From Candidatus Bathyarchaeota archaeon (GTDB taxonomy: Archaea; Thermoproteota; Bathyarchaeia; Bathyarchaeales; WUQV01), in assembly GCA_021158125.1 (NCBI GenBank), contig JAGGVF010000006.1:50938-114937 (forward strand): 64,000 bases of DNA. Reading direction: 5' to 3'. This document shows, one piece after another, positions 7,670 to 49,310 of the stretch. The notes under the pieces are model-generated. The model worked only from the letters and a program-made list of their open reading frames with translations, was not told the origin of the DNA and ran no database searches. A program made the position numbers and the translations under genes. How positions within the stretch are numbered: the first letter of the stretch is position 1; each line of letters starts with the position of its first letter.

Positions 7670-7782
7670 CCGCTATCCCTAGTTGCTGAGTTAAACTCAA
7701 AGTTTCCAGTTAGTAGCCTTCTTAGGATTTAATAAAAATTTATGAATTGGTGCTAAGTATTTGAGAAGAAGCAACTTCACGT

Positions 7783-7816
7783 AAAATTTTACTGTAAATT
7801 GGCGCCGGGGAGGGGA
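7783..7816. repeat. distal att repeat (displaced tRNA-Ser 3' fragment)
   Basis: AAAATTTTACTGTAAATTGGCGCCGGGGAGGGGA matches 43021-43055 except for one G indel. The last 17 nt equal the 3' end of the tRNA at 43039-43055. Confidence 0.8.
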
Positions 7817-8169: not shown

Positions 8170-9048
8170 CTAGAGTAGAAGAGGCACTATTGTGTCGATT
8201 TTCTCACTTGCAATCGTGTAATTCATTGGAAAATCTATTTCCCTAAAACTTTGGATAACCGTCTGTCTCATTTGTTCCCAAGCAGGCCCATCGGTTATCC
8301 ATATAAAAGAGATTCCTTGTTTCTCGCGGATCTTCCTTTGTAAGTCTATGTATGCGTTTGCAGTTTCTATTGGTTTACTCCCAGTAGTATTATAGAAATT
8401 GCATTCAATCACTATTTTAGGCATATTTTGGGCATAAATTACAAAATCTGCTCTTTTTCTTCTTCTTACAATCACGCTGGGGTCCTCAGACCTTATTTCT
8501 ATTTTTTCGAAATTTCCCAATTTCCTCTTTAGCAGTAATTCAACAAGATTTTGAAATATTTCGCCGCTTCTGTTTTTTCTAGCATTCGAATCGAGACCCA
8601 CTTCTACTCCTAGTAGATATGCGTAAAGGTCATTGATTTCGCCGAAGAGCTGCAAAATTCCAACTTTATCACAGAAAGTAACTAGGTCTTCCGCTGCTTT
8701 CTTTGATAGTTTCCTTCTGGAGAAGTTAAATGTCTTATAAATTGCTTTTTCACCGATTTCAAGAATGGGCACACTTCTCTCTCTTACTGCAATTATGGAA
8801 GGAATGACAGGTATAATTTCTGGGTAGTTTATAAATAACTCCTTAAGTTCCGTCTTACGTTCTTCGGGAGGTATTTTAGTTAAAGAATTTAGAAGGCTTA
8901 TTTCTCTTACATATTTTCTAACATTTTGCTTAACCTTTTCCCAAGCCACAAAATAATCATAAGTCCAGTTTGTCTTTAGTAATGTGTCAAAGAAGTAATC
9001 AAAGTATTCATTTTCAGTTTTAAACCCCATAATGTCGTACTTAACCAA
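8170..9048 (-). CDS. type II restriction endonuclease, DpnII/MboI family (GATC expected)
   Basis: Matches the DpnII pattern along its length: NWTYDYF, YPEIIPVIPSIIAVR, GVEVGLDSNARKNRSG, IECNFYNTTGSKPIETANAY, FIWITDGPAW. Confidence 0.9.
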   Translation of the reverse strand: MVKYDIMGFKTENEYFDYFFDTLLKTNWTYDYFVAWEKVKQNVRKYVREISLLNSLTKIPPEERKTELKELFINYPEIIPVIPSIIAVRERSVPILEIGEKAIYKTFNFSRRKLSKKAAEDLVTFCDKVGILQLFGEINDLYAYLLGVEVGLDSNARKNRSGEIFQNLVELLLKRKLGNFEKIEIRSEDPSVIVRRRKRADFVIYAQNMPKIVIECNFYNTTGSKPIETANAYIDLQRKIREKQGISFIWITDGPAWEQMRQTVIQSFREIDFPMNYTIASEKIDTIVPLLL

Positions 9049-9110
9049 TTATCTTTCTCCTCTTATGAATGAATCATTAATTAAAGTAAAAAGCATTTTG
9101 CACAAATTTT

Positions 9111-9581
9111 ATGAATGTTCCAACTTTAAAATATCAAAAGAGGATCGACATGTCAGAGAAAATAGTTGGTATGATAATACCGATTCCTTCGTATCTCTTA
9201 ATGAGAATTTTTAAAGAGAAAAAGAACAAGATAATAAAAGTTGCAACAATCTTTAAACAAATTAAGCCAGGTTCGAAGGTTCTCTTTTATTCCTCTCATG
9301 AAACACATGCAGTTGTGGGTGAGGGAACAATAGAAACTTGCGAGATTGTTTCGGCAACTAATTTGGTTAAGAATTATAATAAATACAACGGTAACTTATT
9401 CATTACCAAAAAAGAGCTTAAAGAATATCTGTCACAGCGAAAAAGAAGCAAATTCTTAGTAATTTCCTTAAAGGAAATCAAACAGTACAAAAAACCTGTA
9501 AAACTAAGAAGATTCGTTCCAATGGCTGGTCAATATTTAACAAAAAGGCTTTACCAGAAAATCGCCTCTCAACAAAGTTGA
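9111..9581 (+). CDS. PUA-like (ASCH/EVE-type) domain protein
   Basis: IKPGSKVLFYSSHETHAVVGEGTIE fits the PUA-like beta-barrel pattern (GD/S-x-vlFY...ivG.g.v). The more likely start is the ATG at 9150, 5 nt after GAGGA. Confidence 0.5.
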   Translation: MNVPTLKYQKRIDMSEKIVGMIIPIPSYLLMRIFKEKKNKIIKVATIFKQIKPGSKVLFYSSHETHAVVGEGTIETCEIVSATNLVKNYNKYNGNLFITKKELKEYLSQRKRSKFLVISLKEIKQYKKPVKLRRFVPMAGQYLTKRLYQKIASQQS

Positions 9582-9657
9582 ATAATTTTGACCGTTAGCA
9601 GTTCGTAGAAGCGTAATGAATATATAAGTAGATAACAACATATCTATCTTGATACAA

Positions 9658-9822
9658 ATGGGCCAAATAAACCTCAAAATAGACGATAATCTCGAAAAAG
9701 AATTTAGAAGGGTTGCTGCAGAGAAATTCGAGGCTAAGAAGGGATTTTTAAAGAAGGCAATAGAGGAAGCAATTAGAGATTGGATTCGAAAAAACAGCCA
9801 AAGAGGCACCAAAAATGTCTGA
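9658..9822 (+). CDS. ribbon-helix-helix (CopG/Arc-like) protein; candidate R-M controller
   Basis: MGQINLKIDDNLEKEFRRVAAEKFEARKGFLKKAIEEAIRDWIRKN shows a beta-strand then two helices, as in RHH proteins. Stop overlaps the methyltransferase ATG (ATGTCTGA). Below the track cutoff. Confidence 0.6.
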   Translation: MGQINLKIDDNLEKEFRRVAAEKFEAKKGFLKKAIEEAIRDWIRKNSQRGTKNV

Positions 9823-10798
9823 AAAATATATAGATATGAAAGAAGTGACGTTTCAGGACTATAAAGAGTTTGTTAAAACGCATAAAGAAGTAACTATAGA
9901 AAACGTTAAAATAGAAATTGGACGGCCTAAAAGAATTAAGGAATTTCAGCCAAAATTTTTCGAGCTTGAAAGAACTAATGTATGGTCATTTCCAGACAGA
10001 GGAAAATGGGCGACTCACAGAGGAAATTTCAGAGGAAACTGGCCGCCTCAAATGGCAAGAAACATCATCATCAGATACTCAAAACCTGGTGAATGGATTT
10101 TAGACCAAATGTGTGGTTCGGGCACAACTTTAATAGAATGTAAGCTACTTGGCAGAAACGCCATTGGTGTAGATATAAACCCAGAATGTATAATGCTCAC
10201 GTTAGATAGGCTCAATTTTGAATATACTCCGCTTGATCTTGATTTTCCAAAAGTGAAAATTAAGACATATGTCGGAGATGCGAGGAACCTAAATCTTATT
10301 GATGACGATTCGGTAGACCTTATAGCTACTCATCCGCCATATGCTAGCATTATTCCATATTCCAAAAAGAAGAAGATTCCGGGTGATATCTCCAAAGTTC
10401 ACAGCATAGATGAGTATATTGATGCTATGAGAGAAGTTGCAAAGGAAAGTTTTAGGGTATTAAAACCGGGAAGATATTGTGCAATATTGGTGGGAGATAC
10501 GCGGAGGCATAGGCATCACGTTCCAATAGCGTTTAGAGTTATGCAAGCATTTTTAGATGTGGGCTTCATACTTAAGGAAGATATAGTAAAGTGTCAGTGG
10601 AAAACGAAAGTTACAAGGGAAAAATGGGAGGGGCTTTCCAAAACATCAGATGAATGCTGGGTGGATATTGACAGAAAGGCAAGAAAGGGACGGTACACAG
10701 ATTTCTACCTACTCTACTATGAGCACTTATTTATTTTCAGAAAACCTGAAGAAAATGAGGATGTTAAAAAATATAGAGATAGTATGAAGTGGTGGTAA
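9815..10798 (+). CDS. SAM-dependent DNA methyltransferase (N6-A/N4-C type)
   Basis: Motif I ILDQMCGSGTTLIECKLLGRNAIGVDIN and motif IV DLIATHPPY. Divergent from the DpnII-like nuclease gene. Confidence 0.85.
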   Translation: MSEKYIDMKEVTFQDYKEFVKTHKEVTIENVKIEIGRPKRIKEFQPKFFELERTNVWSFPDRGKWATHRGNFRGNWPPQMARNIIIRYSKPGEWILDQMCGSGTTLIECKLLGRNAIGVDINPECIMLTLDRLNFEYTPLDLDFPKVKIKTYVGDARNLNLIDDDSVDLIATHPPYASIIPYSKKKKIPGDISKVHSIDEYIDAMREVAKESFRVLKPGRYCAILVGDTRRHRHHVPIAFRVMQAFLDVGFILKEDIVKCQWKTKVTREKWEGLSKTSDECWVDIDRKARKGRYTDFYLLYYEHLFIFRKPEENEDVKKYRDSMKWW

Positions 10799-11393: not shown

Positions 11394-12233
11394 GTGCTAA
11401 TTATGGTAAACTGGTGGATTGCAACAGGCCCACCAAAGTATTGGGAAATTGCTTTTGCATTCGGTAAAATTTGGGGAGTTAGGGCTGTTAAAATACTGGT
11501 TACTCGATGGAAGAAGTTGTCTGAAGGCGATAAAATACTTTTTTATGCAACGAAACCTGTAAGTGGTGTGATTGGGTACGGTATAGTTCGAACAAAGTTT
11601 AAACAGGACAAACCTCTCTGGCCGCGGGAAGTCAAAGAAGGAAAGGTCATATGGCCTTACAGATTTGAGTTCGATGTTGAATATGTTATTCCGCAAGATG
11701 AATGGATGACTCGGAAAGTCACTTCGGACTATATTAGTGCGTCCGCAAGAGGAGCTTTTCAAAAAGTTAAGGAAAGCGAAGCCGAAAAAATTGTTCAGAT
11801 GTTAACTGCCAAACCGCCTAAACCAGAAAAAGGGCGACGTTTGAACGTGCATGACCAAGTCATAGACAAACTCATTGAAATCGGCAAAATTCAAGGATTT
11901 ATAGCTGAAAAAGAGTACAATATGAATGGCGAAAGATTAGATGTTGTATGGAGAAGGGTAGAGAGAGGTGTTCCGACATATGTTTTTGAGGTTCAAGTTG
12001 GCGGAGACCCATATCATGCCATTGCGAAACTCAAACATGCACATGACCTTTGGAACAGCAATATATTCATAATTCTAACAGAAAAAGACGTTGCTAAAGT
12101 TCAAAAGCTTTTAACAGGAACATTCCACGAAATTCAGGGCAAAATTAAATTAATTGATGTAGAAAAAATAAAAAAGTTATTCGAACTTAAAAGGGCTTAT
12201 AAGGAGTTCGAACAGCAAATAGGTATTTCATAG
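11394..12233 (+). CDS. EVE/PUA-like domain fused to a PD-(D/E)xK-like domain (candidate modification-dependent nuclease)
   Basis: N-terminus WWIATGPPKYWEIAF...GDKILFYATKPVSGVIGYGIV...WPYRFEF is an EVE-type pattern. C-terminus has ERLDVVWRR...TYVFEVQVGG, a D...E-x-Q/K core. Confidence 0.6.
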   Translation: MLIMVNWWIATGPPKYWEIAFAFGKIWGVRAVKILVTRWKKLSEGDKILFYATKPVSGVIGYGIVRTKFKQDKPLWPREVKEGKVIWPYRFEFDVEYVIPQDEWMTRKVTSDYISASARGAFQKVKESEAEKIVQMLTAKPPKPEKGRRLNVHDQVIDKLIEIGKIQGFIAEKEYNMNGERLDVVWRRVERGVPTYVFEVQVGGDPYHAIAKLKHAHDLWNSNIFIILTEKDVAKVQKLLTGTFHEIQGKIKLIDVEKIKKLFELKRAYKEFEQQIGIS

Positions 12234-12316: not shown

Positions 12317-12865
12317 TTATCTGCCCCTATAGCCAGCTGTTGATAAAATTTTATACAAATCAGTAGAATTCAAAAGGCTATTAACCACTCTACTAAACAT
12401 ATATGCTTGGGGGTTGTTAGTCTTTTCTTGTAACATTAGTAACTCCATTAAATGTGTCAAAAACTCTATGGAGAAGAAACCAGCAGCATTAAGAGGTTGG
12501 TAGCTTGTAATAAACTGTCCGCTCTGCGAGTATACCAGATTTCTTAAGATTGTTTGCATTTGTCTATTCGGAAGAGGAGTTATTTGGTTCCATCGGGTCA
12601 GCATATCATTTAAAAAAGCATTAGTAAGCCCGGGGTTACTAAATTTTTTAATAAGAATATCAACTGCCCAATGAATATGTTTTGGTGTTCTTATTTTTGA
12701 TCTTGGGATATTATAATCTCTAAATTTTATCCATATATCATTTTGGCTTATTGTGCCTGGAAAAACATATATCCACAACCCGTTGCCGAAATCTATGTCT
12801 AAGATAGAAGTTATGTTTTGGTTATTTTGTCTAATGCGTGTACATCCAGGAATATATCTAGGCAT
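12317..12865 (-). CDS. hypothetical protein
   Basis: 182-codon ORF with an ATG start. No recognisable motif. Confidence 0.45.
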   Translation of the reverse strand: MPRYIPGCTRIRQNNQNITSILDIDFGNGLWIYVFPGTISQNDIWIKFRDYNIPRSKIRTPKHIHWAVDILIKKFSNPGLTNAFLNDMLTRWNQITPLPNRQMQTILRNLVYSQSGQFITSYQPLNAAGFFSIEFLTHLMELLMLQEKTNNPQAYMFSRVVNSLLNSTDLYKILSTAGYRGR

Positions 12866-13091: not shown

Positions 13092-16000
13092 ATGATTGTT
13101 CTCCATTCTTCTTCTTTATTTGATTTTCTAAGAGAACATTTGCAGAAAAACCTGCAAAGGACCTTATCGAATCCCAGATTTTTAGTGATTCTGCCTAGCG
13201 ATATTGCAATTAATAATTTTAACTACGCGGTTATGAAGGAGGGAATTCCACAATATAATCTGGAAGCAATAACATTTGATGATTTAGCTGAAAAAATTCT
13301 TGATCCGGATAAGAAGCTAGGAATACGAATATTGGACAAACAAACTCTTAGTCAAATAATAGCTAAAATAATAGAGGAAGCTACTTCCGGACCATTGAAA
13401 GATCTTCAGAATATTCCTTATGAAAATCCTGAGACCCGGGAGTTTTTAGTTGAGGAATTTTATGAATACTTAAGGGGTACAGATGCAGGCAATTTGAGTT
13501 CCTTCTTAGAGAATATTGCTCGTAATTTAAGTGATCCTTTTGCTTCTAAGTCTGCAACACGAATTGTAGAAGCATTTAAGATTCTAGAACAAGAAAGCAT
13601 GCTGAAAGTTGAAAATTTGGGCATAAACGTGTTCTTGTCTAGAGCCCATTTGTTAAGAGAAGCTAGAGAAATGCTGAGTTCTCACTGGCCAGGAGTTCTC
13701 GAAGTACAAGAAGTTTTAATATCAGATATTTCCGTATTCGATGCAGTCATATTAAAACTAGTGGTTTCTATTGCAGAAACTGGTCGAAAACGGAATAATT
13801 CTTTCAAAGTTAGAATATTTCAAAGAAGTGGCACCTATAAACAGCTCAAAAAACGCTTAAAAAATGCTGGGGTTGCATTTGGAGAAGAGAATAAGAATGT
13901 AGACGAGTTTCTGGGGATAAAGATCCTAGAAAATTATTATAAGAAGGGCACTTTAAAACTTATCGCTGTACCTGAGCGAAGAAGAGAAGTTATAAAAGCA
14001 GCTGAAAGAATACGTGAGCTTCTTCTTAATGGTGTTAACCCCCGCGAAATTTTAATAGTAGCAAGAGATTGTGGAAAGTATCTCGATCTAATCTCCGAAA
14101 TTTTTCCTGCATTTGGTATTCCTTACTTCGTTCAGACCCGCAGACCTTACGCACATCTTTCTCCGTATCGTTTTGTAAAAGCTACCTTAGATTTACTTGT
14201 GTCAGCGGAACGAAAAGACGTTAAATGGCATGAAATAACTGACCCCCTCAGACTAGGATTTTGTTTACCTTCAAGCAGAAGAGGCTGGCCGGTAGGTTCT
14301 AAGCAATTCGTATATCTTGAAGAATCTTTGTCAAGGATCCAGCATAAAAGAAGGGATCCAATTTCGTTACAGGACTGGCAGCAACTAGTTCAAGATGGGC
14401 TTCATTGGGAGTATCCCAAGAGATTATTACTGAAATTTCTTGAATGGATACAAGTTCAACTATCTTCCCCTCCAAAAGACCCAAGAGAGGCACGTGAACT
14501 TATTGCTAAACTACTTGGGACTTATATGTTTCAACAAAGCACTTGGAGCCGCAAATCCTTTTCACCACGCGTACAAAATCAGGAAAGATTTAACATAGTC
14601 GGGTTGCATCCAACTCATTTCGCCGCAAGAATCAGAAACGAATTAATTGAAATGGAAAACTACATTAGGGATTGCATCAACGCCTTAGGTCAAACTTTGG
14701 ACTGGGAACTTATCTCAAGAGCTTTCGGAGAAGTTTTCGGGACAAAGACCTACGGTCTGCCTGAGCAAGACATGTCTGCAATTAAAGTTGTTGACGCGGG
14801 CAACACACAATTTCTGAAGGCAAAACATCTGTTATTGCTAGGCCTTAGAGCAGACGAGTTTCCAAGAAAGTGCCCAAAGGGAATATTCCTTCCGGATGAC
14901 TTGCGAAAGGCACTTGATGAACCGAAAAAAGGAGAGAGTGCATATCTATATTTGAGAAGTAAGTGGAGCGATTACGCTAATGAATTTGATTACTTAGAAA
15001 CTGTTCTTCAAACAGAACCTGAAACTATTTGGTGTTCTATGCCTTATCTGGATGAAACGGGACATGTTTGTGAGTGGTCTTCGTTTATTGATGCTTTGGG
15101 GCTCGACAAAAAGGAAGAACGAATTCTACCCAATGAATGGTTGCCTACTCCGGCTGAAAAAAAGTGGGGAGAAATGGCAAAAAATTATCCTCCATGGATT
15201 CGGCAAAGGCTTTACTGTTACCATACCTACAGAAGATTTCCCAACCTAGACCCTCCCATTGACGTAAAAGGGGTTGAAGAGTTAGCATCTACCTTGGAAC
15301 CTCATGTTTACCTCACTCACCTAAAAGATAGAATAGAAAGGTATCTATCACCGCCAATGGTGATTGAAGTTCATTGTGATGAGCCTTGGTTTAGTAGATG
15401 CCCTCTTTCAAGAATTATGGGCCCTCCCTTCAGAGCACATGAAATGGACCTCCATGCAATTTGCCCAATTCAATTGTATTTTTGGCAATTTCTTTTCTTA
15501 TGGAACGGAAACACAATTGATAGGGATACTATTCCACTATATTTCAAAACTCCGCACTGGAGGTACGGAAGACCTCCAAAAAGACTTTCTTATGTTTATC
15601 CTTCTACACGCACGAATCAAAGAATTAAGGAGATAATAGAACAAAGATTTCCCAGAAGGCAAGAATCATTTCTTCAGTTCTCTGACGAAGATAAACTTAG
15701 GGACTATTTGGCGACATTCTTATCAGAATTCGAGCAAACTCAGTTTGGCAATTTCTTAATAGATGAGTGGTTGCTTGTAAGACAGGAGAAAAAAGATAAT
15801 ATAATAAGGCAATGGAATTGGAGTGCAAAGAATAGAGCTGTGGAAATCGGGCTACATGAAAAAGTTCAGGTAGTATTACCTCCCCATCGTGCAGATAATC
15901 TTCAAGGCAGTAAACTCATTATTGCATATATAAATTTCAGTGGACAATTAAATGACAGAAATCGAGGACTTTTCTATCCTAAAAAGGGCAAAGTAGTCAA

Positions 16001-16406
16001 GAAAATCCAAGACCCTCTAAGAGATTACAGATTACCTATTCTTCTAACTTACTATTCAACTGTGGAAAAAATTGCTGGTGCCCTATATATTGAACTATTC
16101 AGTGGTAAAAGACTAGGCTATTACGACCAATCTTTGCTCGCAAAACACAAAGGCCCGCGGGGTTACGAAGAGGAGTTGAGAATGCCATGGGATAGAGATG
16201 CAAAAAGCAGAATGCAAGTGCTATATCCGTTAGAATGGAAAAGTATGATTAACCAGTTTACAGCTGCAATAGTGCAGCGTGTAAAGAAAATGTCTCCAAA
16301 TCCTCACCTTCGTTTTGAAGCACCGCCCAGAGATCAACTACTCCGTGTCTGCACGAGATGCGTGTACAAAGACCTTTGTCAAATACCTAGGGCAGAGGGG
16401 TTGTAA
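13092..16406 (+). CDS. AddB-like subunit: helicase-like scaffold without a Walker A, with a C-terminal Cas4/AddB-type Fe-S nuclease-like domain
   Basis: No GxxxxGK[ST] seen. C-terminal HAICPIQLYFWQF plus CTRCVYKDLC gives the four-Cys pattern of AddB/Cas4 nucleases. Stop overlaps the start of the AddA-like gene (TAATG). Confidence 0.65.
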   Translation: MIVLHSSSLFDFLREHLQKNLQRTLSNPRFLVILPSDIAINNFNYAVMKEGIPQYNLEAITFDDLAEKILDPDKKLGIRILDKQTLSQIIAKIIEEATSGPLKDLQNIPYENPETREFLVEEFYEYLRGTDAGNLSSFLENIARNLSDPFASKSATRIVEAFKILEQESMLKVENLGINVFLSRAHLLREAREMLSSHWPGVLEVQEVLISDISVFDAVILKLVVSIAETGRKRNNSFKVRIFQRSGTYKQLKKRLKNAGVAFGEENKNVDEFLGIKILENYYKKGTLKLIAVPERRREVIKAAERIRELLLNGVNPREILIVARDCGKYLDLISEIFPAFGIPYFVQTRRPYAHLSPYRFVKATLDLLVSAERKDVKWHEITDPLRLGFCLPSSRRGWPVGSKQFVYLEESLSRIQHKRRDPISLQDWQQLVQDGLHWEYPKRLLLKFLEWIQVQLSSPPKDPREARELIAKLLGTYMFQQSTWSRKSFSPRVQNQERFNIVGLHPTHFAARIRNELIEMENYIRDCINALGQTLDWELISRAFGEVFGTKTYGLPEQDMSAIKVVDAGNTQFLKAKHLLLLGLRADEFPRKCPKGIFLPDDLRKALDEPKKGESAYLYLRSKWSDYANEFDYLETVLQTEPETIWCSMPYLDETGHVCEWSSFIDALGLDKKEERILPNEWLPTPAEKKWGEMAKNYPPWIRQRLYCYHTYRRFPNLDPPIDVKGVEELASTLEPHVYLTHLKDRIERYLSPPMVIEVHCDEPWFSRCPLSRIMGPPFRAHEMDLHAICPIQLYFWQFLFLWNGNTIDRDTIPLYFKTPHWRYGRPPKRLSYVYPSTRTNQRIKEIIEQRFPRRQESFLQFSDEDKLRDYLATFLSEFEQTQFGNFLIDEWLLVRQEKKDNIIRQWNWSAKNRAVEIGLHEKVQVVLPPHRADNLQGSKLIIAYINFSGQLNDRNRGLFYPKKGKVVKKIQDPLRDYRLPILLTYYSTVEKIAGALYIELFSGKRLGYYDQSLLAKHKGPRGYEEELRMPWDRDAKSRMQVLYPLEWKSMINQFTAAIVQRVKKMSPNPHLRFEAPPRDQLLRVCTRCVYKDLCQIPRAEGL

Positions 16407-19400
16407 TGATGCTTCTTAAGAGGAATAAAACCCCAGAGCTGGAAAGTGATCAGAAATACGTGATGAATTGTTACTTGCGTCCTGGAGGGCGAGTATGTGT
16501 CGATGCTGGAGCAGGTACTGGAAAAACAACAGTGTTAATAGAGACTTTAGCAGAAACTGTACTTCGAGAGCTTCAAGGCAAGCCAGGTAATTTTAATCCT
16601 ATGGAAAGAATACTGGTAGTTTCTTTCGGGGTAGAAGCTTCGAGACAACTGAAATCAAGACTCAAAGAACGCTTAAGGGATCATGAGTCTGCAGGTGGCA
16701 TCTTACCAACGAATATTTGGCGATTTATTGAAACAGAATCTCATATCCAAACAATTGATGCTTTTCTTCAAGCACTTTTAAGGGAAATTGTTACTGAAAT
16801 TGGATTAAACCCCTCATTCGAGATATCTACGGGATTAGAGCAGGATAACCTTGTTGATGAAATCATAAACAAAATTCGCAATGACCCATCACTAGCACCT
16901 AAATGGTTTAGGCTCGAAAGAGCATTCCCCAACCTTGATTATTTAGAATATCCTCCTGAAAATCTTCGTGACATGATATGGAATACTCATCAAAAAGCAC
17001 GTGAATTTTGTCTTGATGTTAAAGAGGTCAAGAATCAACTTGTTTTTGCCGTTAAGAACTTAATTCATAAAGGGTTTGAACCTCCCTTCACAATAGATGC
17101 TCTCCAAAAGCTTGTGCAACAATTATCCAATAACACGTATGTCCTGACTTGTCCAGACCATCAGAAAGCGGCTATGATTGAACATGCTGAAGATGTTTAC
17201 AACTACAGCTTACAGCTCGCAAACGATTTTGGTGACTTATTAATAGCGTTCGATGAACAATACGATGCCATCTCGAAGAAAACGGGAAAATTAACTTACA
17301 TTGATGTTGCGTATTTAGTATGGCAGTATACCTTCAAGAAGGGAGGAAATGACTGGAAGACACGTTTGCAAAATAGGTTTGACCACATATTTGTAGATGA
17401 ATTTCAAGATACTAATTTTGTTCAATATGAGATAATAAAAAGTCTAATCCGTTCAGGACCACCTGAAAAACGGAATCATGTTATGTTTATCGGAGACTTG
17501 AAACAATCAATTTACCAATGGCGAAGTGCTGAGCCACAGATTTTTAGGGATCTTATCCTTTCTCTAAAACAAAAAACAGCCGCTGATTCGATCCCCGAAG
17601 GGATGACCTATGCTCCGCTCGTCTCAAATTTCCGAAGTCATCCAAAGCTTATTGACTTTTTCAATGGTGTCTTTTCGCAGTTATTCAAGGATAGGGCAAG
17701 AGGAGCAGTTTCAGGAGAAGTTCCTTATGAGGAATTAATAGCCAAGGTCGAACTGGCTTCTGATGATAATAAGCCCAGAGTACACATTTTAATAAATCCT
17801 GGTAGAACTGTGAGAGAATGGGTTGATTACGAAGCTCAAAAACTTGCTGCTATTATTCGAGGTATTCTCCAACCAAACTCAGGCATTCTTGTACATGAAG
17901 AAAACAAGACCAGACAACCATATGCTGGAGATATTGTCCTTTTGTTCCGCAGAAAAGAAAACATACCTAGGTACGTTAATGAATTAAGGTCTTCTGGAAT
18001 AAACTGTGCGATCCAGACCGACGTATCATTATTCGGTGAACCCGAAGTATCCTTGATTATTGATTTTCTAGATTGGCTAGCTAACCCTGATTCAAGAGAA
18101 TCAATCACTCGAATTTTACGCTCCCCTATAATAGCTCTAAGCGATAAAACTTTGAGATACCTTGCGAGCAAACGTTTCTTTTTAGTAAAGGCGTTAAATG
18201 ACTGGAAGCCAGAGTTCAATTTACCTGAAGAAGACAAAAGAAGACTTATTGAACTGCTGAAATTCCGTGAAGACTTGAGATGGGACAGAGAAGGCCCTAA
18301 AGCAGCTTTAATTGAACGGATTATAGCACATGGCTATTTTGATTCAGTCGTATTAACTTCGGAAGACGGATTGCAAGCCCAAGCCAACCTATGGATGCTG
18401 ATCGAAGTTGTTTCTTCATGGGAAGAAGAAGAGCTTTTGTCTTACCGAGATTTCATAAAGACACTAAAGGCACTCCGTGATAGAGCATATAGAGGAGTTG
18501 AAAAAGATTTTCCAAGAGCTATTCTTGCAGATGAAAAGACTAAAGATTCAGTAAAAGTAATGACAATTCATGCAGCTAAGGGGCTGGAATTTCCAATAGT
18601 TATAATACCTGAAAGTATTGTGCATGCTCGTGAATCAGTTAGAAATGAAAGAATTATAAGGAACCGAAGAAGCGGCATTATTTTAAGACCAAGAGCAGAA
18701 CACACTTATTTACCTTCCGATGTCCAGATAACAAATGTAAACAACAATAAACATATTTCCTGGGTCGGCAGAGGAGACGAAGAGGCAATACTTTGGCTAT
18801 CACCAGAAAGGAGCACTGAAACTGGGCTTTTTGTTACAGATAGCCCGATTCACCAAAATGTTAAAAATGATGTAGCTGAATTTTGGAGACTCTTATACGT
18901 CGCCGCCACCAGAGCAAAGGATCATCTAATCTTTTCTATCGGGAATGATGACCGATGGGAAAAATATGAATGGAATTCATGGATGCGATTTCTCCGAACC
19001 TCTTTGAATCTAATTGATGTTCAAGCTGCGAATGGGAACACAAGCAAAAAAGTTGAGTTGGCCTCAAAGCAAATCGAGATAGGTATCGAAGACCTCCCGA
19101 GCGTGCCTCCCCCAACTCCCGCCCCATTCTTAGATAAGCCCATTCCAAATGGCAAGAACGCCGAGTATAAAAGTGGTTGCCCTAGTTTTGTTCCTTCGCA
19201 GATTAATCCTTCAGAATTCCCAATTTTTCTAGAATGCCCAAGACGTTATCAATACGCAGCAATCTGGCGGACAAGCGGATTACGAGAATCTTCATTAACA
19301 GCAGATGCCAGCGGTGCACAACCTCCATGTACAAAAAGTGGAAAAATGTCTGCTGATGAATGGGGTGACCAAGTCCATAAGGCATTGAGACTCTGGGATT

Positions 19401-20008
19401 TTTCTTTAAGTTTCAGCTCCGATCAGCGACTCAAAGATTACATGGATCGAGTCGAACGTGTACTTGGGACAAGGGTTCGGGCTGAAATTGAGAAGGCATT
19501 AACAAACTTCTCGAAGCTGAATGTTGGAAAAATGGCGATAAATGCGGCTCGAGACGGTAGACCAATTCATAAGGAAGAAGAATTGCAAGCATTAATTTCA
19601 TGGAATTCTTCTTTTCCGCCAATTCTAGTTAGGGGCCGTTTTGATCTTTTGTTCCAGAATGAAAAAGGAGATTGGATTCTTGTGGACTTCAAAGCTGAGA
19701 AAATGCCACCTCCTAACTCTTTTAGGGACAGAATATACAGAGGGCAAATAAATGCATATGCATGGCTTATATTAAACGCATTAGGCATTAAAATAAAAAA
19801 GGCCTATTTAGCCTACGTTCATCCCAACGGAGCTGAAAAAGAAGTCATCCCTGATGAAACAGAGTTCGAAGAACAAGTAAAATCAAGCATCAATTCACTA
19901 ACGCTTGATCCACAAAAAGGTCTAAAAGCCACACCATCTTACAGCCCAGATGGACCTTGTTCTAATTGCCCATACAGCCGAAAGGTTGGTGGTCCATGCG
20001 AGAATTGA
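16406..20008 (+). CDS. AddA/UvrD-like superfamily-1 helicase with C-terminal PD-(D/E)xK Fe-S nuclease
   Basis: Walker A DAGAGTGKTT, FVDEFQDTN, YQWRSA, MTIHAAKGLEFP, YVAATRAKDHL. Nuclease GRFDLL...ILVDFKAEK, QINAYAW. Cys ligands ECPRRY and CSNCPY...GGPC. Confidence 0.85.
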   Translation: MMLLKRNKTPELESDQKYVMNCYLRPGGRVCVDAGAGTGKTTVLIETLAETVLRELQGKPGNFNPMERILVVSFGVEASRQLKSRLKERLRDHESAGGILPTNIWRFIETESHIQTIDAFLQALLREIVTEIGLNPSFEISTGLEQDNLVDEIINKIRNDPSLAPKWFRLERAFPNLDYLEYPPENLRDMIWNTHQKAREFCLDVKEVKNQLVFAVKNLIHKGFEPPFTIDALQKLVQQLSNNTYVLTCPDHQKAAMIEHAEDVYNYSLQLANDFGDLLIAFDEQYDAISKKTGKLTYIDVAYLVWQYTFKKGGNDWKTRLQNRFDHIFVDEFQDTNFVQYEIIKSLIRSGPPEKRNHVMFIGDLKQSIYQWRSAEPQIFRDLILSLKQKTAADSIPEGMTYAPLVSNFRSHPKLIDFFNGVFSQLFKDRARGAVSGEVPYEELIAKVELASDDNKPRVHILINPGRTVREWVDYEAQKLAAIIRGILQPNSGILVHEENKTRQPYAGDIVLLFRRKENIPRYVNELRSSGINCAIQTDVSLFGEPEVSLIIDFLDWLANPDSRESITRILRSPIIALSDKTLRYLASKRFFLVKALNDWKPEFNLPEEDKRRLIELLKFREDLRWDREGPKAALIERIIAHGYFDSVVLTSEDGLQAQANLWMLIEVVSSWEEEELLSYRDFIKTLKALRDRAYRGVEKDFPRAILADEKTKDSVKVMTIHAAKGLEFPIVIIPESIVHARESVRNERIIRNRRSGIILRPRAEHTYLPSDVQITNVNNNKHISWVGRGDEEAILWLSPERSTETGLFVTDSPIHQNVKNDVAEFWRLLYVAATRAKDHLIFSIGNDDRWEKYEWNSWMRFLRTSLNLIDVQAANGNTSKKVELASKQIEIGIEDLPSVPPPTPAPFLDKPIPNGKNAEYKSGCPSFVPSQINPSEFPIFLECPRRYQYAAIWRTSGLRESSLTADASGAQPPCTKSGKMSADEWGDQVHKALRLWDFSLSFSSDQRLKDYMDRVERVLGTRVRAEIEKALTNFSKLNVGKMAINAARDGRPIHKEEELQALISWNSSFPPILVRGRFDLLFQNEKGDWILVDFKAEKMPPPNSFRDRIYRGQINAYAWLILNALGIKIKKAYLAYVHPNGAEKEVIPDETEFEEQVKSSINSLTLDPQKGLKATPSYSPDGPCSNCPYSRKVGGPCEN

Positions 20009-22438
20009 TTAATGACAAAATTCGCACGTCTAGCGATGTTCGATTCCCATTATATGACAAAGCTGAAAAACTAGGCGTGTTTACTGCCGAAAAAGGATGG
20101 TTGATCTCTGCACCGACAGCTACGGGAAAAAGTCATATTGGCATCGAAGTAATTAAGCGTAATCTTCCTAAAAAACCAAGAATGGAGACTTTTCTTTACC
20201 TTGTTTCCTATAAGGCACTTGCCGAAGAAATCTATGCAAAGCTCAAAAAGGAATTGCCGCCTGAGACACGAATTAACATAAAAACTGGCGATTATGACCG
20301 CCCATTTATACCTACAGAAACAGATGTTTTAGTTGCAACCTATGAAAGTATCGACGGAATGATCCAGCAAGGGATAGAGTTTTATCCTTCCATAGTCGTT
20401 GCTGATGAGATTTCAATTATTTCTGATGATCACAGAGGTGCAAAAATAGAATCTTTGATTTCTTATCTTGCTAAGTTCAAATCTGGCACTAAACTTTACG
20501 CATTGTCTGCCGTATTATCTGCACCTGAACGCATAGCTAAATGGTTAGGTACAGAGTTATTGCTGGGAAACGAGGAGGATAGACCTGTTAAACTTGAAAT
20601 CAAGTGTTTACTGATCCCTAAAGGGAAAAAAATTGCTACAATAAGAAAACTTATTAAAAACGGGCTCTCACAAGGGAATTTTCTGATCTTCTGTGAGACA
20701 AAAAGGGAAGTGGAGAAACTTTGCAGTGAACTAAAGAATATTGTCGCTGCTTCCATGACAAGTAGAGAAATTCGAGAAGTCAAAGAACTAGCTATCCAGC
20801 TTAAGAATGAATTTCCGTATCTTGTAGACATTCCTGAACTAATAACAAAAGGTGTGGCATATCATCATGCAGATCTAGAAGTCGACTTAAGAAACAGAAT
20901 AGAAGAGGCCTTTAGACAAAAGAAAATAAAAGTTGTCGTGGCGACAACCACTCTCTCAGCAGGAGTTAATCTTCCAGCTAGATTTGTAATAGTACGAGAC
21001 GTTACTCGCCATGAAGCTGGAAGAAGAAAACTGCTACCCATATCAGAAATGGTAAACATGCTTGGACGGGCTGGAAGACCAGGCCATGACAAGCTTGGAA
21101 CTGGCTATTTTTTTGTTCCAAAGGAAAAAGCGAACCAGCGAAGCTATAAGGAATTTATATCAAAAGTCAAAAAAATGCAAAGTAGAAGAATTAAATAGCC
21201 AGATTCCAAAAAGCATGACAAATGTTCTTCATTTTATTCTTGCGACCGCTGCAAGATTTAAGGGAATTACGCGTGATGATTTGATTTCAGTATACAATAC
21301 TACCTTATGGGGATTTGAACATCCGCTAAAGGGGCCATTTCTGTCTAGTGAAAAATTAACTAGTAGAATTAGAGAGGTCTTAAAACCTCCAAGAGGTGGT
21401 GTAAAGATCGATCAAACCAGTATCCGAATAGCTGGAAATGTTTTATACGCAAAAGGAGGGTCCAAACAATATGAAATCACAATATCAGAAGAGAAATGTA
21501 CATGCGAATGCCCTGCGTTCACCTATAGAGGAGGAATATGTAAACATATTAGGCAGCTTCAATACGATGCGATAATAGGAGACATTGGAAAGAAGAATCC
21601 CGAAGCAAAAACTATCGCAATCGCATCTTTTAAGAGCACTGGGCTTAAACGTGACCCAATGTATATGTTGTCTGTAGGCGTCGATTTACTGTTAAACTGG
21701 AAATTTTTAGAGGAAAAAAATGGAAAGCTCTTGATCACCAGAGACGGTAGACAAGCTCTTGTTAATTATCTACTTGAGATGGAACATGTTAGACTTTTAA
21801 GAGATCGTATCAAAAAAGGCGAAACTGTGAAAAATGAAGAAGACATAATTAGATGGGCTATAGAGGACTATACGATACCTGAAGATGAAACAACTCGAAG
21901 TGGTCTTCCAGAAGTGTTAGCTCAAGCTATTTGGAAACATGTCAAAAATCAACCATATAAGCAAATTCTGCCGAAACGCTGGATTAAACCTTTCTTGGAT
22001 GCAAAAGATAAGTTAAACCAAATTTTCAATGCCTACCTTGCATTTTGCCCAAAAGAAAACAAGATGCTTGCTCAACTCATCAGAACTGCTAGAAGGAGAG
22101 TCCATTATGGTTGCATCAAAGAACTTCTGCCGTTAATGGTTCTTGACATAGAAGAAATTAATGATGTCTTAAAAGCGGAAAAACTTTTCCAAAATGGAAT
22201 AAAGAACGTTAATGACCTTTCAAGAGTCTACTATGAAGAACTTTCCGAATTACTTAAAATCTCTCAAGATGAGGCAAGAAAAGCTGTACAAAAAGCAAAA
22301 AATATAGTCAAACTTGTTTCAGAATTTAGCGGAGACAGAGCACAACTAGGCATATTAGCGGCACGAACAGGGGTAAAGGTTGACGCCCTTCTTGACTATC
22401 TCCTTCCTAAGGAAATGGCTGAAAGACTTAGATATTAA
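19966..22438 (+). pseudogene. Ski2/Hel308-like superfamily-2 helicase with SWIM zinc finger, split by a +1 frameshift in an A7 run (21169-21175)
   Basis: Part 1: SAPTATGKSH (Walker A), VADEIS (DExx), ATTTLSAGVNLPA, MLGRAGRPG (motif VI). Part 2 (frame +1) continues with a winged-helix-like region, CTCECPAFTYRGGICKH (SWIM CxCxnCxH) and an HhH-like C-terminus. Removing one A joins ...SKVKKCKVEELNSQ. Confidence 0.75.
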
Positions 22439-31384: not shown

Positions 31385-32827
31385 GTGGTGGCTATGTATG
31401 GAAGGCCTGACTGGTGGAGTTTCCTGCGGATTAGTAGTGATGGGTGGTCGAGTGAATTTCGTAGTGTAGATAGACTTTTGAGGCATTTGTCACGGAAGAC
31501 AGGGAGTATTGCTTCCAGGAACGCATATTGTTATATTCTGTGGAAGTTATGTGAAAGCGATTATGTCCAAAAGAGGTTGGGCTCAGAAATTAATCCTGAT
31601 CAACTTATTCTTAAGGCAAAGGAAGATCCCGAACTTATAACAAATATTGTCCAGGCATTTGGTGACGAGGTTTATCGAAAGAGATCTGTTAGATACGCTA
31701 ACCACAGGATTCAATTATTGAAAACTTTCTTCAAGGTCAACAAAGTCGACTCTAAGTTGGATCTAAATTTGTATTCGCAACCAACACGAAGCCGCAAAAG
31801 ACCAGAGTATATTCCCACGCTAGAAGAAGCATTAAGGATGGCTGAGGTTTCTGGAAATCTTAGAGATAGGCTTATCATTGAATTTCTGCTCTATACTGGT
31901 TTGCGAAACTCTACCCTTAGAGCACTAGTGTACAATGAGCATTATCCAGAACCTCTTCTGAAAGAGTATACAATTAAAAGGGAGCTAGAAAGGGGCGAAG
32001 AGTGCATTGTTATAATCGTCCATGAAATTATGAAAGAGCGAGTGCCAAATGCGTGTAAAAATCGAATATTCTACTATACTTTCATTCCACCAAAAGTTAC
32101 AGCCGACCTTCACGCCTATATCAGAGAAAGAGAGGAAAAATACGGCCCCCTCCGTGATGATGATCCAATTTTTCCTACGGGAAATAGAAGGATACCGCTA
32201 AGTGTAAGACTCCAAACCCCGATTTCATCACGTGAACTGCAGGAAATAGTTAAAAAGGCGGCAAAGAGAGCTGGAGTAGAACATGAGCGTTATGTATATC
32301 CACACTGTCTCCGGAAGACTTATGAAAGCTTTCTACGTAATCAACCCAATGATGTGAAGTTAGACATCAAGGAACGGGAATTCCTTTTCGGTCACGTTTT
32401 GCCGGGCAGCCAAGACACCTACTTCGATAGGACAAAAATTGAAGAAATGCGAGCAAAATATGCTAGATTAAACTTCGAACCGATTGTTATTGAAACGGAG
32501 GAACGGGTAGTAAAACAGGAAGATCTTCAGTCATTCCTTGAGCAAGGCTGGAAATTTGTGGCTGCATTGTCGAACGGCAAAGTCGTAATTTCTAGGAAAG
32601 TCAAAAGACAGGCCAAAAAAGTGCATATAACACCTGAGTTTGACAGAGACTCATGCACAGCTCAGAATACTCCACTATCAACCAAAGAAAGGGAACATAA
32701 CAATCTTCCAAGAGCTTCGCAAGAAAATGAAGCTACTTTTACCGACAATCAGAAATTAGATTTAGAAGAATCCCTTACTAAAAAAACGAGGCAAAAAAAG
32801 CTCCAGGAGTTTCTTTCGCCTGATTAA
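31385..32827 (+). CDS. tyrosine recombinase/integrase (long archaeal type), paralog A
   Basis: GLRNSTLRAL (Arg), HCLRKTYESFL (HxxR), GHVLPGSQDTYFD (His...Tyr). Confidence 0.85.
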   Translation: MVAMYGRPDWWSFLRISSDGWSSEFRSVDRLLRHLSRKTGSIASRNAYCYILWKLCESDYVQKRLGSEINPDQLILKAKEDPELITNIVQAFGDEVYRKRSVRYANHRIQLLKTFFKVNKVDSKLDLNLYSQPTRSRKRPEYIPTLEEALRMAEVSGNLRDRLIIEFLLYTGLRNSTLRALVYNEHYPEPLLKEYTIKRELERGEECIVIIVHEIMKERVPNACKNRIFYYTFIPPKVTADLHAYIREREEKYGPLRDDDPIFPTGNRRIPLSVRLQTPISSRELQEIVKKAAKRAGVEHERYVYPHCLRKTYESFLRNQPNDVKLDIKEREFLFGHVLPGSQDTYFDRTKIEEMRAKYARLNFEPIVIETEERVVKQEDLQSFLEQGWKFVAALSNGKVVISRKVKRQAKKVHITPEFDRDSCTAQNTPLSTKEREHNNLPRASQENEATFTDNQKLDLEESLTKKTRQKKLQEFLSPD

Positions 32828-32837
32828 CGGGCTTGTG

Positions 32838-34076
32838 TTATATTTTTTGTCTATATTTTCTCATCTGGACGTATTCCTCTATCACTTTATCTGGGTCAAG
32901 TCCCGTACCCTCAAATGCTTTTGCAACAGCCATTCTCAAAATCTTGAATTTATTCTCCACAACGACTCTTCCGAAGCTGAGTCTCGCGTATTCTGCCCTT
33001 AAGTATTCCACTTTAGATTTATCGAAGTAGGTGTCTTGGCTGCCCGGCAGGATGTGGCCCATAAAGAATTCCTGAATTTTTGGGTCTAATCGTCCACCGT
33101 CTATGAGCTCGCTATGCAGGACCGTTTCAAATGCCTTACGAAGACTATGTGGAGTTATATATTTCCACTGCTGAATTCCAGCTTTCTTTGCGGCTGATTT
33201 AACTATAAACTGGACTTGTCTTGATGTCAGGATTTTTGATCTCCGTTTGCTTCTTTCAATTTGGTTATAGTCTGAGGAAAAAAGAGGCTCATGACTTAAT
33301 ATTTCTCCATATTTCTCTTCTCTCTCACGCAAATAAAGCCTAATTGCCTCAGTTGCTTCATCACATGTGAAAGTAAAGTAGGAGATATTACGTTTACACG
33401 CGTATGGATCTACAAGTTTCATCTCAGGATAAACTGGAATAAGGAGGTTACTAACACCTTTTGACAGCTCTTCTTCAATATCTCTGATAAGCAACGCTCG
33501 TAAAGTAGAGTTTCTGATACCGCTACTGTAGAGTGTTAGAATTATAGCTCTATCTCTTAATGAAGCCGCACAGTCAGCCATTGCATAAATTTCATTTTTC
33601 TTTGGAATATACTCGGGAACTTTTCTATATCTCGCTGGCATGTAATATCGTTCGACTTCAAGTCCCTTGGATCCTTTAAAACCGTTTACTCTAAAAAATG
33701 TAGTTAGAAGCTCGATTATGTTGTTCAGGTATCTTACACTATAACTACCATTACTACTGTAATTGTATTCATCTACATAGTCTTGAATGAGTTTTTCAAT
33801 TGTACTTTTAGGAAGTGTAATGAGTTTATCTGGATTCGCTCCGGCATAGATGCAGAAGGAGTAAAGTCTGTACAAGTAGGCTCTTCGTGAAGCCTCACTT
33901 CTACATTTTCTTGAAAGGTACCTAAGCAATAGATCCACGCTTTGATATTCGCTTCTCCATCCGTTAACCTTCAGGAAGCTAAAGCATTTGCCTGACTCTC
34001 TTGGTTGACACTGACTAACTAAGTGCTTGCCTTTATTTAGTACTCTAGTTGTTTGCATAAAAAATGATACATTCAA
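32838..34076 (-). CDS. tyrosine recombinase/integrase, paralog B (convergent with A)
   Basis: GIRNSTLRAL, HSLRKAFETVL, GHILPGSQDTYFD. The N-terminal WRSEYQSVDLLLRYLSRK parallels paralog A. Confidence 0.85.
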   Translation of the reverse strand: MNVSFFMQTTRVLNKGKHLVSQCQPRESGKCFSFLKVNGWRSEYQSVDLLLRYLSRKCRSEASRRAYLYRLYSFCIYAGANPDKLITLPKSTIEKLIQDYVDEYNYSSNGSYSVRYLNNIIELLTTFFRVNGFKGSKGLEVERYYMPARYRKVPEYIPKKNEIYAMADCAASLRDRAIILTLYSSGIRNSTLRALLIRDIEEELSKGVSNLLIPVYPEMKLVDPYACKRNISYFTFTCDEATEAIRLYLREREEKYGEILSHEPLFSSDYNQIERSKRRSKILTSRQVQFIVKSAAKKAGIQQWKYITPHSLRKAFETVLHSELIDGGRLDPKIQEFFMGHILPGSQDTYFDKSKVEYLRAEYARLSFGRVVVENKFKILRMAVAKAFEGTGLDPDKVIEEYVQMRKYRQKI

Positions 34077-43020: not shown

Positions 43021-43055
43021 AAAATTTTACTGGTAAATTGGCGCCGGGGAGGGGA
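43021..43055. repeat. tRNA-proximal att repeat
   Basis: AAAATTTTACTGGTAAATTGGCGCCGGGGAGGGGA. Copy of 7783-7816. Confidence 0.8.
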
Positions 43056-43165
43056 CTTGAACCCCTGCGGGCCGTGGGGCCCACCGGCTGACTTGTCAAG
43101 GCCCCTTTTTAACTATTGCCTAGTAGATCTCGAGGCCGGCGCATTAGCCGCTCTGCCACCCCGGC
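43039..43165 (-). tRNA. tRNA-Ser(CGA) with a 39-nt intron at the canonical 37/38 position and encoded CCA
   Basis: Hand-folded: acceptor GCCGGGG/CCCCGGC, D arm GCA..TGC, anticodon stem CCGGC/GCCGG, loop CTCGAGA, long variable arm TGGGCCCCACGGCCCGC, T arm AGGGG-TTCAAGT-CCCCT, then GCCA. 127 nt = 88 + 39. Confidence 0.85.
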
Positions 43166-49108: not shown

Positions 49109-49130
49109 CCCCTAAATTTCCATTGGAAAC
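49109..49130 (-). repeat. ORB1 (CCCCTAAATTTCCATTGGAAAC)
   Basis: Dyad core TTCCA-T-TGGAA with the C-string on the left, i.e. a G-string on the minus strand. Confidence 0.7.
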
Positions 49131-49288
49131 TCCTTACAAATCTGCAATAGAAATACTGATTCTTCTTCTAGAAGAAGAATACACTCCGAAAGGTTTGTTC
49201 AACTAACCAAATTTAACTATTACACTAAATAATTCTATAGCACATCGTTAATTTTTTTGATCTGCTAATATTATGTGCTTTTTGACTA

Positions 49289-49310
49289 ATTTCCATTGGA
49301 AACTAAGGGG
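49289..49310 (+). repeat. ORB2 (ATTTCCATTGGAAACTAAGGGG)
   Basis: Same 17-nt core AATTTCCATTGGAAACT as ORB1, with the G-string on the right. Inverted relative to ORB1. Confidence 0.7.

Follow-up and report, generated by a model that had tools for sequence, protein, structure and literature searches.

Can archaea carry helicase-nucleases of the AddAB kind, and what would such an enzyme be doing on a mobile element? The question arises from three large genes in a 64,000-nt stretch of a Candidatus Bathyarchaeota archaeon genome (GCA_021158125.1, contig JAGGVF010000006.1, positions 50,938 to 114,937), which we call the window and in whose own coordinates its features are given. RecBCD/AddAB-type nucleases have been stated not to be present in archaea (bioRxiv 10.64898/2026.05.08.723854). 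A preliminary description of the window, made from its letters alone, had proposed that the genes at 13092-22438 on the plus strand form an element-borne module of an AddB-like protein, an AddA-like protein and a Ski2-like helicase with a SWIM finger. We find that the module is an undescribed archaeal cassette made up of known kinds of enzyme, AddAB-type helicase-nucleases and Hel308-type helicases. Our preferred reading, to which we assign a probability of about one half, is that it is a mobile, archaea-specific AddAB-type helicase-nuclease with a dedicated Hel308-type helicase, directed against invading DNA and carried as cargo by defense islands and mobile elements.

The three genes lie on one strand and overlap one another. 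The first, g1 (AddB-like, 1104 aa, 13092-16406, plus strand), ends in a TAA stop (16404-16406) whose last A is also the first base of the ATG (16406-16408) of the second, g2 (AddA-like, 1200 aa, 16406-20008, plus strand), so that the junction reads TAATG (16404-16408). The g2 stop, TGA at 20006-20008, falls downstream of the ATG at 19996 that opens the third gene, g3 (Hel308-fold helicase with a SWIM finger, 19996-22438, plus strand), leaving an overlap of 13 nt. Because their start and stop codons overlap, the sequence suggests that the genes are co-translated. The gene limits come from the list of open reading frames (ORFs), and both junctions were read in the sequence itself. The preliminary description had read both junctions in the same way, naming 19966 and 19996 as candidate g3 starts and estimating about 820 aa once a frameshift is repaired; the later start is the likely one, and the repaired protein has 813 aa. 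A scan for sigma-70 promoters and terminators returned chance-level matches only, the sigma-70 model not being relevant to archaea. Immediately upstream of g1, and divergent from it, is a 182-aa ORF without a family match (12317-12865, minus strand). A homolog stands at the equivalent place in one other locus with the module (L086; E 6e-19), and the ORF may encode a regulator or a fourth component found in the closest lineages only.

The g2 protein looks like an active motor joined to an active nuclease and a four-cysteine cluster. It matches three Pfam families (UvrD-helicase, 1e-42; UvrD_C, 1e-25; PDDEXK_1, 7.6e-15), and its best NCBIfam model is that of AddA (TIGR02785; 2e-80, 271 bits, under the equivalog cut-off of 708). 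Its best relative of solved structure is Bacillus subtilis AddA (3e-43), twenty orders of magnitude before Rep, PcrA and UvrD. The helicase motifs are kept in 8 g2 homologs (Walker A GAGTGKT, DEFQD and GDxKQSIYxWRSA), as is a Cas4-type nuclease signature across 8 members, CPRRYQY...GRFDLL...VDFK...QINAY (QxxxY)...CxxCx8-9C. Both parts of an AddA, an intact UvrD-like SF1A motor and a C-terminal RecB-type nuclease with D...(D/E)xK, are therefore present in the sequence.

For g1 the likeness is carried by fold. The protein has no Pfam and no PADLOC match, and it scores weakly against the NCBIfam AddB model (TIGR02773; 32 bits, the equivalog cut-off of 904 not being reached). A profile made from 15 g1 homologs matches B. 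subtilis AddB in the Protein Data Bank (PDB) co-linearly (E 1.8e-8), and Foldseek, given an AlphaFold (AF2) model of g1 (pLDDT 77), placed B. subtilis AddB first over the full length (3u4q_B, E 1e-28, TM ~0.5), followed by RecC and then by UvrD and AdnA. The SF1 helicase fold of g1 is degenerate, and at the N-terminus the sequence LVILPxxIA occupies the position of the missing Walker A motif. An SF1-like fold without a motor, encoded upstream of an AddA, is what an AddB presents, and the model supports g1 as the AddB-like partner of g2 in a predicted pairing.

The C-terminal RecB/Cas4-type domain of g1 differs from that of g2. Four cysteines are invariant in the 15 sequences (C791, C1087, C1090 and C1096, spaced C-x2-C-x5-C after C791), which at the level of sequence gives the one N-terminal and three C-terminal cysteines of the AddB "iron staple". 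The motif II aspartate is retained (D935, in HRxD). Where g2 has D-x-K, however, g1 has N-F-S, the family reading VNFS or VNYS in 13 of 15 members and LSYS and VRTD in the other two. This correspondence comes from a local hhalign alignment of the two nuclease domains that is weak (E 0.006, probability 6%) and co-linear, and on it g1 lacks the D...DxK of an active second nuclease. In global mode hhalign gave no alignment of the two domains, and phmmer found only chance matches for the g1 C-terminal domain in the PDB. We conclude that g1 is probably a scaffold like AddB or RecC, held by an iron staple and dead at the canonical nuclease site, and thus that the module is not a canonical dual-nuclease AddAB. 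A non-canonical site could conceivably be formed by other invariant residues (E784, D786, H788, H932, E1001, H1019 and K1020).

The third protein is a helicase of the Hel308 fold. Its AF2 model (pLDDT 89, pTM 0.84) finds its best PDB matches in Hel308/Hjm (2VA8, 2ZJ8 and 2P6R; target-normalized TM 0.74-0.79), followed by the Pol theta helicase and Brr2. All five Hel308 domains, namely RecA1, RecA2, winged helix (WH), ratchet and helix-hairpin-helix (HhH), can be assigned in the model, the ATPase motifs are all present, and the HhH tail also resembles the RadA N-terminus. By sequence g3 matches Hel308 models (E 7e-63) with equivalog scores that are low (PRK01172, 213 bits, cut-off 891; NF040935, 178 bits, cut-off 1200), and canonical Hel308 proteins cover about 50% of it at 30% identity. 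With these scores, a patchy distribution and its linkage in an operon, g3 does not qualify as a Hel308 ortholog. It also matches HamB profiles in PADLOC (E 1e-40).

Alignment to canonical archaeal Hel308 shows an insertion of about 115 aa within the WH domain of g3, made up of a beta-rich segment, a SWIM zinc finger (CxCx9CxH, CTCECPAFTYRGGICKH; 21497-21547, plus strand; Pfam SWIM) and a helical segment. The finger exceeds the Pfam gathering score (29.2 and 28.3 bits against 19.6), and C503, C505, C515, K516 and H517 are invariant across 36 members of the g3 family, bacterial ones at 30% identity included. In Ski2 and Mtr4 the arch domain occupies the topological position that matches this insertion (PMC10946056). 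Of what the preliminary description had said about the three proteins, the complete UvrD/AddA motor and intact PD-(D/E)xK iron-sulfur (Fe-S) nuclease of g2 and the Hel308/Ski2-type helicase with SWIM finger and HhH tail of g3 are borne out. Its AddB-type partner is supported by fold, with a nuclease site that is probably dead.

In the window itself g3 is present as two overlapping frames (19966/19996-21198 and 21062-22438), split by a +1 frameshift at an A7 homopolymer (21169-21175, plus strand) that is A6 in close relatives. Deleting one A fuses the halves into 813 aa from the ATG at 19996, and the repaired protein aligns with intact homologs over its whole length, the junction reading KEFISKVKKCKVEELNSQIP against KEFISKVKKCKVEELDSQIP in L007. 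In two independent metagenome contigs, L079 from ENA and L083 from JGI, which match the window at 98.8% identity along 10 kb and 4 kb respectively, the run is A6 and g3 is intact, giving an 813-aa protein (P0018, 99% identical). The A7 run is the sole coding-sequence indel in the 10-kb alignment of the window with L079, and 24 of the 31 g2 substitutions between them fall at third codon positions, indicating that the genes are under purifying selection. Given A6 and the intact P0018 in both contigs, the extra A is either a sequencing error in the homopolymer or a lesion that arose very recently in this strain only. Programmed frameshifting is ruled out, every relative being in frame at the site.

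How widely does the module occur? A word-indexed search of 5.8 billion proteins found 16 clusters of real g1 homologs, and an exhaustive profile search of 1.84 billion representatives found 61 at E<=1e-30; its tail of matches grades into bacterial AddB over profile positions 270-365 only. Two g1 peptide patterns, run over 185,579 GTDB species representatives, turned up no relative. This rarity argues against a core repair function. The g2 search showed a sharp score gap, with about 75 clusters at 500 bits or more (31-100% identity) and bacterial AddA-like proteins at 192 bits or less. The named members above the gap are all archaeal (Thorarchaeota, Thermoplasmata, Haloarcula amylolytica, Halobacterium sp. 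NMX12-1, Natronorarus salvus and Haloprofundus halobius), the clade is also found in Bathyarchaeia, and some haloarchaeal g2 homologs lie on main chromosomes of 2.6-3.2 Mb. By sequence, then, the AddA-like and AddB-like proteins make up a clade with exclusively archaeal named members, clearly apart from bacterial AddAB.

The order g1-g2-g3 recurs in loci L001, L004, L005, L006, L007, L080, L086 and L091 and in near-duplicates. Merging sequences at least 90% identical left 9 lineages with usable flanks; a further three-gene lineage, L089 (67% g3 identity), is on a contig too short for flanks. The order is conserved down to 32% identity in g1 and 42% in g3. The flanks have almost nothing in common between lineages and are of the kinds seen in defense islands and mobile elements: Dam methylases and a DUF7226 ATPase in L001; a FokI-domain protein, an HsdM fragment, UvrD and Nmad3 in L004; SNF2 and an Exo5-like nuclease in L005; TIR proteins and serine recombinases in L006, whose host is archaeal because TBP and TFIIB are on the same contig; an integrase, a UvrD-Cas4-methyltransferase (MTase) trio and a DpnII restriction-modification (R-M) system in L007; and an AlwI R-M system in L080. 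Thus the three genes occur together in at least nine lineages, and their variable surroundings, rich in defense and mobile-element genes, are not those of core genes; confinement to this locus and a core chromosomal repair role were the two outcomes that the preliminary description had set against its own proposal.

One neighbor does stay with the module. A DpnII gene and an N6/N4 MTase gene accompany it in three related lineages (window 8170-10798, L007 20226-22669 and L086 13399-15390), with similarities across them of E 1e-173 for the MTase and up to 8e-146 for DpnII. The pair stands on differing sides of the module, so the island has been rearranged while the linkage was kept.

The genes also occur in partial sets. 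g1 and g2 are found without g3 beside Csa3-like regulators and DndB in L002, from a metagenome-assembled genome (MAG), and on a 280-kb replicon of the cultured haloarchaeon Natronorarus salvus (L163; CP144124.1, 139669-163088). The neighbors in the latter are a 1285-aa McrB-N/EVE/AAA_5 protein, Eco57I-type enzymes, an HNH protein and a second PD-(D/E)xK protein of 1074 aa. The g3 family in turn has bacterial members (Armatimonadota, Gandjariella) with identities near 30%; the Gandjariella protein, P0078, was not located on a contig. In about 25 bacterial metagenomic loci (L082 and L097-L128; for example L110, 9959-15234) a SWIM-Hel308 protein of about 800 aa is followed by a UvrD plus PD-(D/E)xK (Cas4-like) protein of about 945 aa; the two genes are immediately adjacent, often overlapping, and no g1 accompanies them. 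PADLOC did not recognize this bacterial pair as a system. There are thus two uncharacterized candidate defense cassettes around a Hel308-SWIM helicase, a three-gene one in archaea and a two-gene one in bacteria.

We next consider the DNA in which the module sits. The window encodes PolD DP1 and DP2, Cdc6/Orc1, GGGP synthase and a NurA-HerA pair, and in a scan of GTDB species representatives the closest relatives of its DP2 (81% identity) are Bathyarchaeia MAGs. An intron-containing tRNA gene of 124 nt (43042-43165, minus strand; Rfam tRNA, 45 bits) was detected by Rfam only, ARAGORN in bacterial mode having missed it. A direct repeat of 35-36 nt with one indel occurs twice about 35 kb apart. 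The proximal copy, at the right end of the element (43021-43056, minus strand), is the 3' end and flank of the tRNA, and the distal copy, at the left end (7782-7816), holds the last ~17 nt of the tRNA and 19 nt of 3' flank. Adjoining the tRNA is a tyrosine integrase gene (41501-42475, minus strand; Pfam Phage_integrase, 2e-28, plus SAM-like N-terminal domains). Repeats of a tRNA 3' end at both borders and an integrase beside the intact tRNA are the marks of a tRNA-targeting element. Since tRNA-derived repeats bound the module and an integrase adjoins the tRNA, the sequence identifies the module as cargo of a tRNA-integrated element of about 35 kb. An archaeal host, an element-borne module, R-M, EVE and Argonaute neighbors and a NurA-HerA pair in the same window had all been put forward in the preliminary description, and all are upheld.

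A long prokaryotic Argonaute (pAgo) of 716 aa is encoded in the same element (39336-41486, plus strand; PADLOC pAgo, 3.7e-54; CbAgo 6qzk, 1.7e-15; no Pfam match). Aligned to CbAgo, its catalytic tetrad (DEDX) reads D-E-N-S; the third acidic residue is gone, so the protein is probably catalytically inactive. pAgo genes stand near the module elsewhere: a 736-aa pAgo about 1 kb upstream in L004, a pAgo split into two ORFs 2-4 kb upstream in L005, an 889-aa Piwi protein with a small PD-(D/E)xK protein directly upstream on the same strand in L080, and a pAgo-like ORF 2.7 kb downstream in L092. Between the Piwi gene and g1 in L080 is a gene for a 319-aa protein (1281-2240) that matches CARF-PD-(D/E)xK/Csx1 nuclease models (4e-7) and may, by sequence, be a pAgo-associated nuclease.

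In all, five of the nine three-gene lineages, the window element included, have a pAgo 1-17 kb from the module, a count taken from short flanks and a small sample that linked inheritance of an ancestral island would inflate. The bacterial two-gene loci, about 30 in number, showed none (Fisher p = 2e-4 for the comparison with 5/9), and our hidden Markov model (HMM), built from archaeal pAgo sequences, may under-detect pAgos there. Loci with g1 and g2 only showed none either. The presence of pAgo genes beside the three-gene module in five of nine lineages is new here. These pAgos are highly divergent (23% identity between those of the window and L005) and vary in position and orientation; the linkage is therefore old or recurrent, and either points to function. 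In bacteria, pAgo guides are generated by RecBCD or AddAB, and the source of guides is unknown where both are absent (PMC12094033). pAgo operons are enriched in UvrD-nuclease and DEAD-box helicase orthogroups, and inactive pAgos generally depend on nucleases encoded with them (PMC6299218).

How might the module work? If it is an anti-invader helicase-nuclease, g1 and g2 would form a heterodimer that binds the ends of double-stranded DNA. g2 would supply the sole motor (UvrD-type, 3'-5') and the sole canonical nuclease site, and g1, which probably cuts nothing itself, would contribute a scaffold of the AddB/RecC kind held by a structural Fe-S iron staple. The complex would unwind and degrade linear or broken DNA. 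Bacterial RecBCD and AddAB degrade phage and plasmid DNA. g3, a predicted 3'-5' SF2 helicase with SWIM at the Ski2/Mtr4 arch position, might have an accessory role, loading or sensing at DNA that is branched or has a 3' tail, and the net outcome would be restriction of the invader. In roughly half of the lineages the neighboring pAgo probably cooperates, the module either making small DNA guides or degrading DNA that pAgo has marked. A stronger form of this idea, which we regard as tentative and on balance doubtful, makes the module the archaeal counterpart of RecBCD/AddAB for Argonaute immunity, traveling with pAgo genes and shredding invader ends into pAgo guides or, for inactive pAgos such as the D-E-N-S protein, serving as a nuclease effector brought to the DNA that pAgo has marked. 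If true, it would be a new multi-gene pAgo-associated defense system, and the view that archaea have no AddAB/RecBCD-type enzymes would be overturned.

Several observations weigh against an anti-invader role with pAgo as helper. AddAB enzymes are primarily repair enzymes, and a transferable repair module is possible. A scan of IMG/VR viral contigs for g1 gave no match. g3 is not obligatory, because g1-g2 occurs without it in L002 and in haloarchaea. Nor is g3 a RecD-like motor for the opposite strand, since it and g2 have the same predicted polarity. Four of the nine lineages have no pAgo in the available flanks, the window pAgo is 17 kb from the module, and the contrast with the bacterial loci is open to the detection bias of our HMM. 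Finally, g3 is frameshifted in the window, so that the module there may be partly inactive, or the extra A may be an assembly error.

The first of these points leads to an alternative that we judge unlikely, that the module is an accessory for double-strand break repair in which the AddAB-like enzyme resects ends for RadA recombination and the Hel308-like helicase handles stalled forks and D-loops, to the benefit of host or element survival and not of immunity. By fold and sequence g1 and g2 are nearest to AddAB, a bacterial recombination enzyme, g3 is nearest to the repair helicase Hel308 and has a RadA-like tail, and some g2 homologs sit on haloarchaeal main chromosomes as noted above. Yet the host already has NurA-HerA, the module is sporadic and rare with different flanks in each lineage, and its neighbors are R-M, TIR, pAgo and recombinase genes rather than repair genes. 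Bacteria with the SWIM-helicase and UvrD-Cas4 pair, moreover, normally own RecBCD or AddAB. That the module serves the element itself, in its maintenance or against other defenses, for example by acting on element DNA during excision or replication or by removing rival elements or the products of host restriction, is very unlikely in our judgment. The module does lie within a tRNA-integrated element bearing three integrases, and recombinases adjoin it in L006 and L007, but at no locus is it accompanied by genes for replication, conjugation or virions, and the g1 scan of IMG/VR viral contigs gave no match. L001 and the haloarchaeal copies belong to large replicons and have no obvious element genes less than 10 kb away, and the other cargo (R-M, pAgo, EVE) is typically host-protective.

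The bacterial two-gene loci bear on another alternative, an abortive or damage-sensing system like Hachiman in which g3 senses aberrant 3' ends or infection damage and unleashes g1-g2 on all DNA of the cell. Hachiman is a pair of a helicase sensor and a PD-(D/E)xK effector (PMC12278908). The match of g3 to HamB profiles would fit such a system, as would the layout of the roughly 25 bacterial loci, where g3 almost always precedes a UvrD-PD-(D/E)xK gene in the manner of sensor and effector. The Hel308 models score higher than HamB on g3, however, and its fold is that of Hel308 with all five domains. No HamA (DUF1837) was found among the module proteins scanned with PADLOC, the neighbors of g3 being g2 and an intergenic region. 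Moreover, g1-g2 exists without g3, and a processive end-dependent nuclease needs no sensor to release it. We therefore consider a Hachiman-like mode of action quite unlikely, and continue to prefer an archaeal anti-invader helicase-nuclease with its own Hel308-type helicase. The module runs counter to the common view that enzymes of the AddAB/RecBCD type are missing from archaea. It is also a concrete candidate for making pAgo guides or acting as pAgo effector in archaea, one that is testable because cultured haloarchaea carry homologs.

Other features of the window surround the module. Within the element are genes for a DpnII endonuclease (8170-9048, minus strand), a DUF365 protein (9111-9581), the N6/N4 methyltransferase (9815-10798) and an EVE-domain protein (11394-12233), together with an HtrA protease, a MacB-type ABC transporter, BlaI/BlaR1-like genes, a dCTP-deaminase-like gene and the pAgo. 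The EVE-domain protein has a C-terminal extension of about 140 aa with no family match and may act as a restriction enzyme that depends on modified bases. Two convergent tyrosine-recombinase genes (480 and 412 aa) occupy 31385-34076 in mid-element, bringing the integrases in the element to three and suggesting a nested or composite element. Outside the element, two perfect copies of AATTTCCATTGGAAACT (49115-49131 and 49288-49304) lie in a 780-bp gap beside cdc6/orc1 (47717-48967), with PolD DP1 on the far side of cdc6. They resemble the ORB core, TTCCAnTGGAAA, and a chromosomal replication origin beside cdc6/orc1 is likely. NurA (weak Pfam match, 7.7e-6) and HerA adjoin and overlap at 50189-52721; Mre11 and Rad50 genes are not beside them in the window.

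How does the module compare with known systems? Our search of the literature on Hel308 with SWIM, SWIM in defense, and archaeal AddAB/RecBCD-like enzymes in defense islands found no description of it. The preliminary description could match it to no named system, and our PADLOC run agrees: it returned generic helicase-core matches only (HamB, GajB, SngC and BrxH), on which ground membership in Hachiman, Gabija, Shango or BREX is ruled out. Like AddAB (B. subtilis; PDB 3U4Q and 4CEH), the module has two large subunits that appear to be co-translated, a UvrD motor and RecB-type nuclease in the AddA-like one, and an AddB-like one with a dead helicase fold and a C-terminal domain predicted to be stapled by a 1+3 cysteine Fe-S cluster. 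Unlike AddAB, g1 and g2 score far under the NCBIfam equivalog cut-offs, g1 has neither Walker A nor D-x-K, and g2 has its own four-cysteine cluster, which to our knowledge B. subtilis AddA does not have. The module is also mobile and sporadic and has a third helicase gene, and a large gap in score sets its clade apart from bacterial AddA.

RecBCD of E. coli, a heterotrimer, likewise has a helicase-nuclease (RecB) and a scaffold of dead helicase and nuclease folds (RecC, which ranks second among the structural matches to g1), with RecD as its other helicase. If the g1 nuclease is dead, the single-nuclease logic of the module is nearer to RecBCD than to AddAB. The third subunit differs, however: g3 is an SF2 Hel308-type 3'-5' helicase and RecD is SF1B and 5'-3'. 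Hel308 and UvrD-type motors both translocate 3'-5', so a bipolar two-motor mechanism is unlikely, and g3 as a RecD analog is ruled out on predicted polarity, the same 3'-5' as that of the g2 motor. g1 also retains Fe-S cysteines that, as far as we know, RecC does not have. g3 shares the five-domain architecture and ATPase motifs of Hel308/Hjm (2P6R, 2VA8 and 2ZJ8), but with 21-23% identity only, a SWIM insertion in the WH domain, a place in an operon with a helicase-nuclease and a patchy distribution. Hel308 is a vertically inherited core gene (PMC10946056).

Three kinds of defense component come close in part. UvrD-Cas4 fusions occur in bacteria and mesophilic archaea beside R-M genes and, in the portion of Hudaiberdiev et al. 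2017 (PMC5704561) that we draw on, are predicted defense components. The ~945-aa bacterial partner of g3 has exactly such an architecture, but the fusions in that portion are stand-alone or linked to R-M or Dcm-Vsr, with no AddB-like or Hel308-SWIM partner mentioned there, and g2, at 1200 aa, is the longer protein and resembles AddA. Hachiman (HamA-HamB) also joins a Ski2/Hel308-like helicase to a PD-(D/E)xK nuclease in defense islands; here the nuclease partner is a predicted processive helicase-nuclease, and a SWIM module is unreported for HamB in the literature examined. The pAgo accessories, namely APACE1 (pAgo plus the Cas4-family ACE1, PMC12094033) and og_6, og_34 and og_37 (Ryazansky 2018, PMC6299218), similarly place Fe-S nucleases or helicases beside pAgo and share the idea of supplying or processing DNA for pAgo where RecBCD and AddAB are missing. 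The module differs from them in being archaeal, in pairing a full AddAB-like motor enzyme with a Hel308-SWIM helicase, and in its linkage to pAgo in five of nine lineages, usually as a separate operon.

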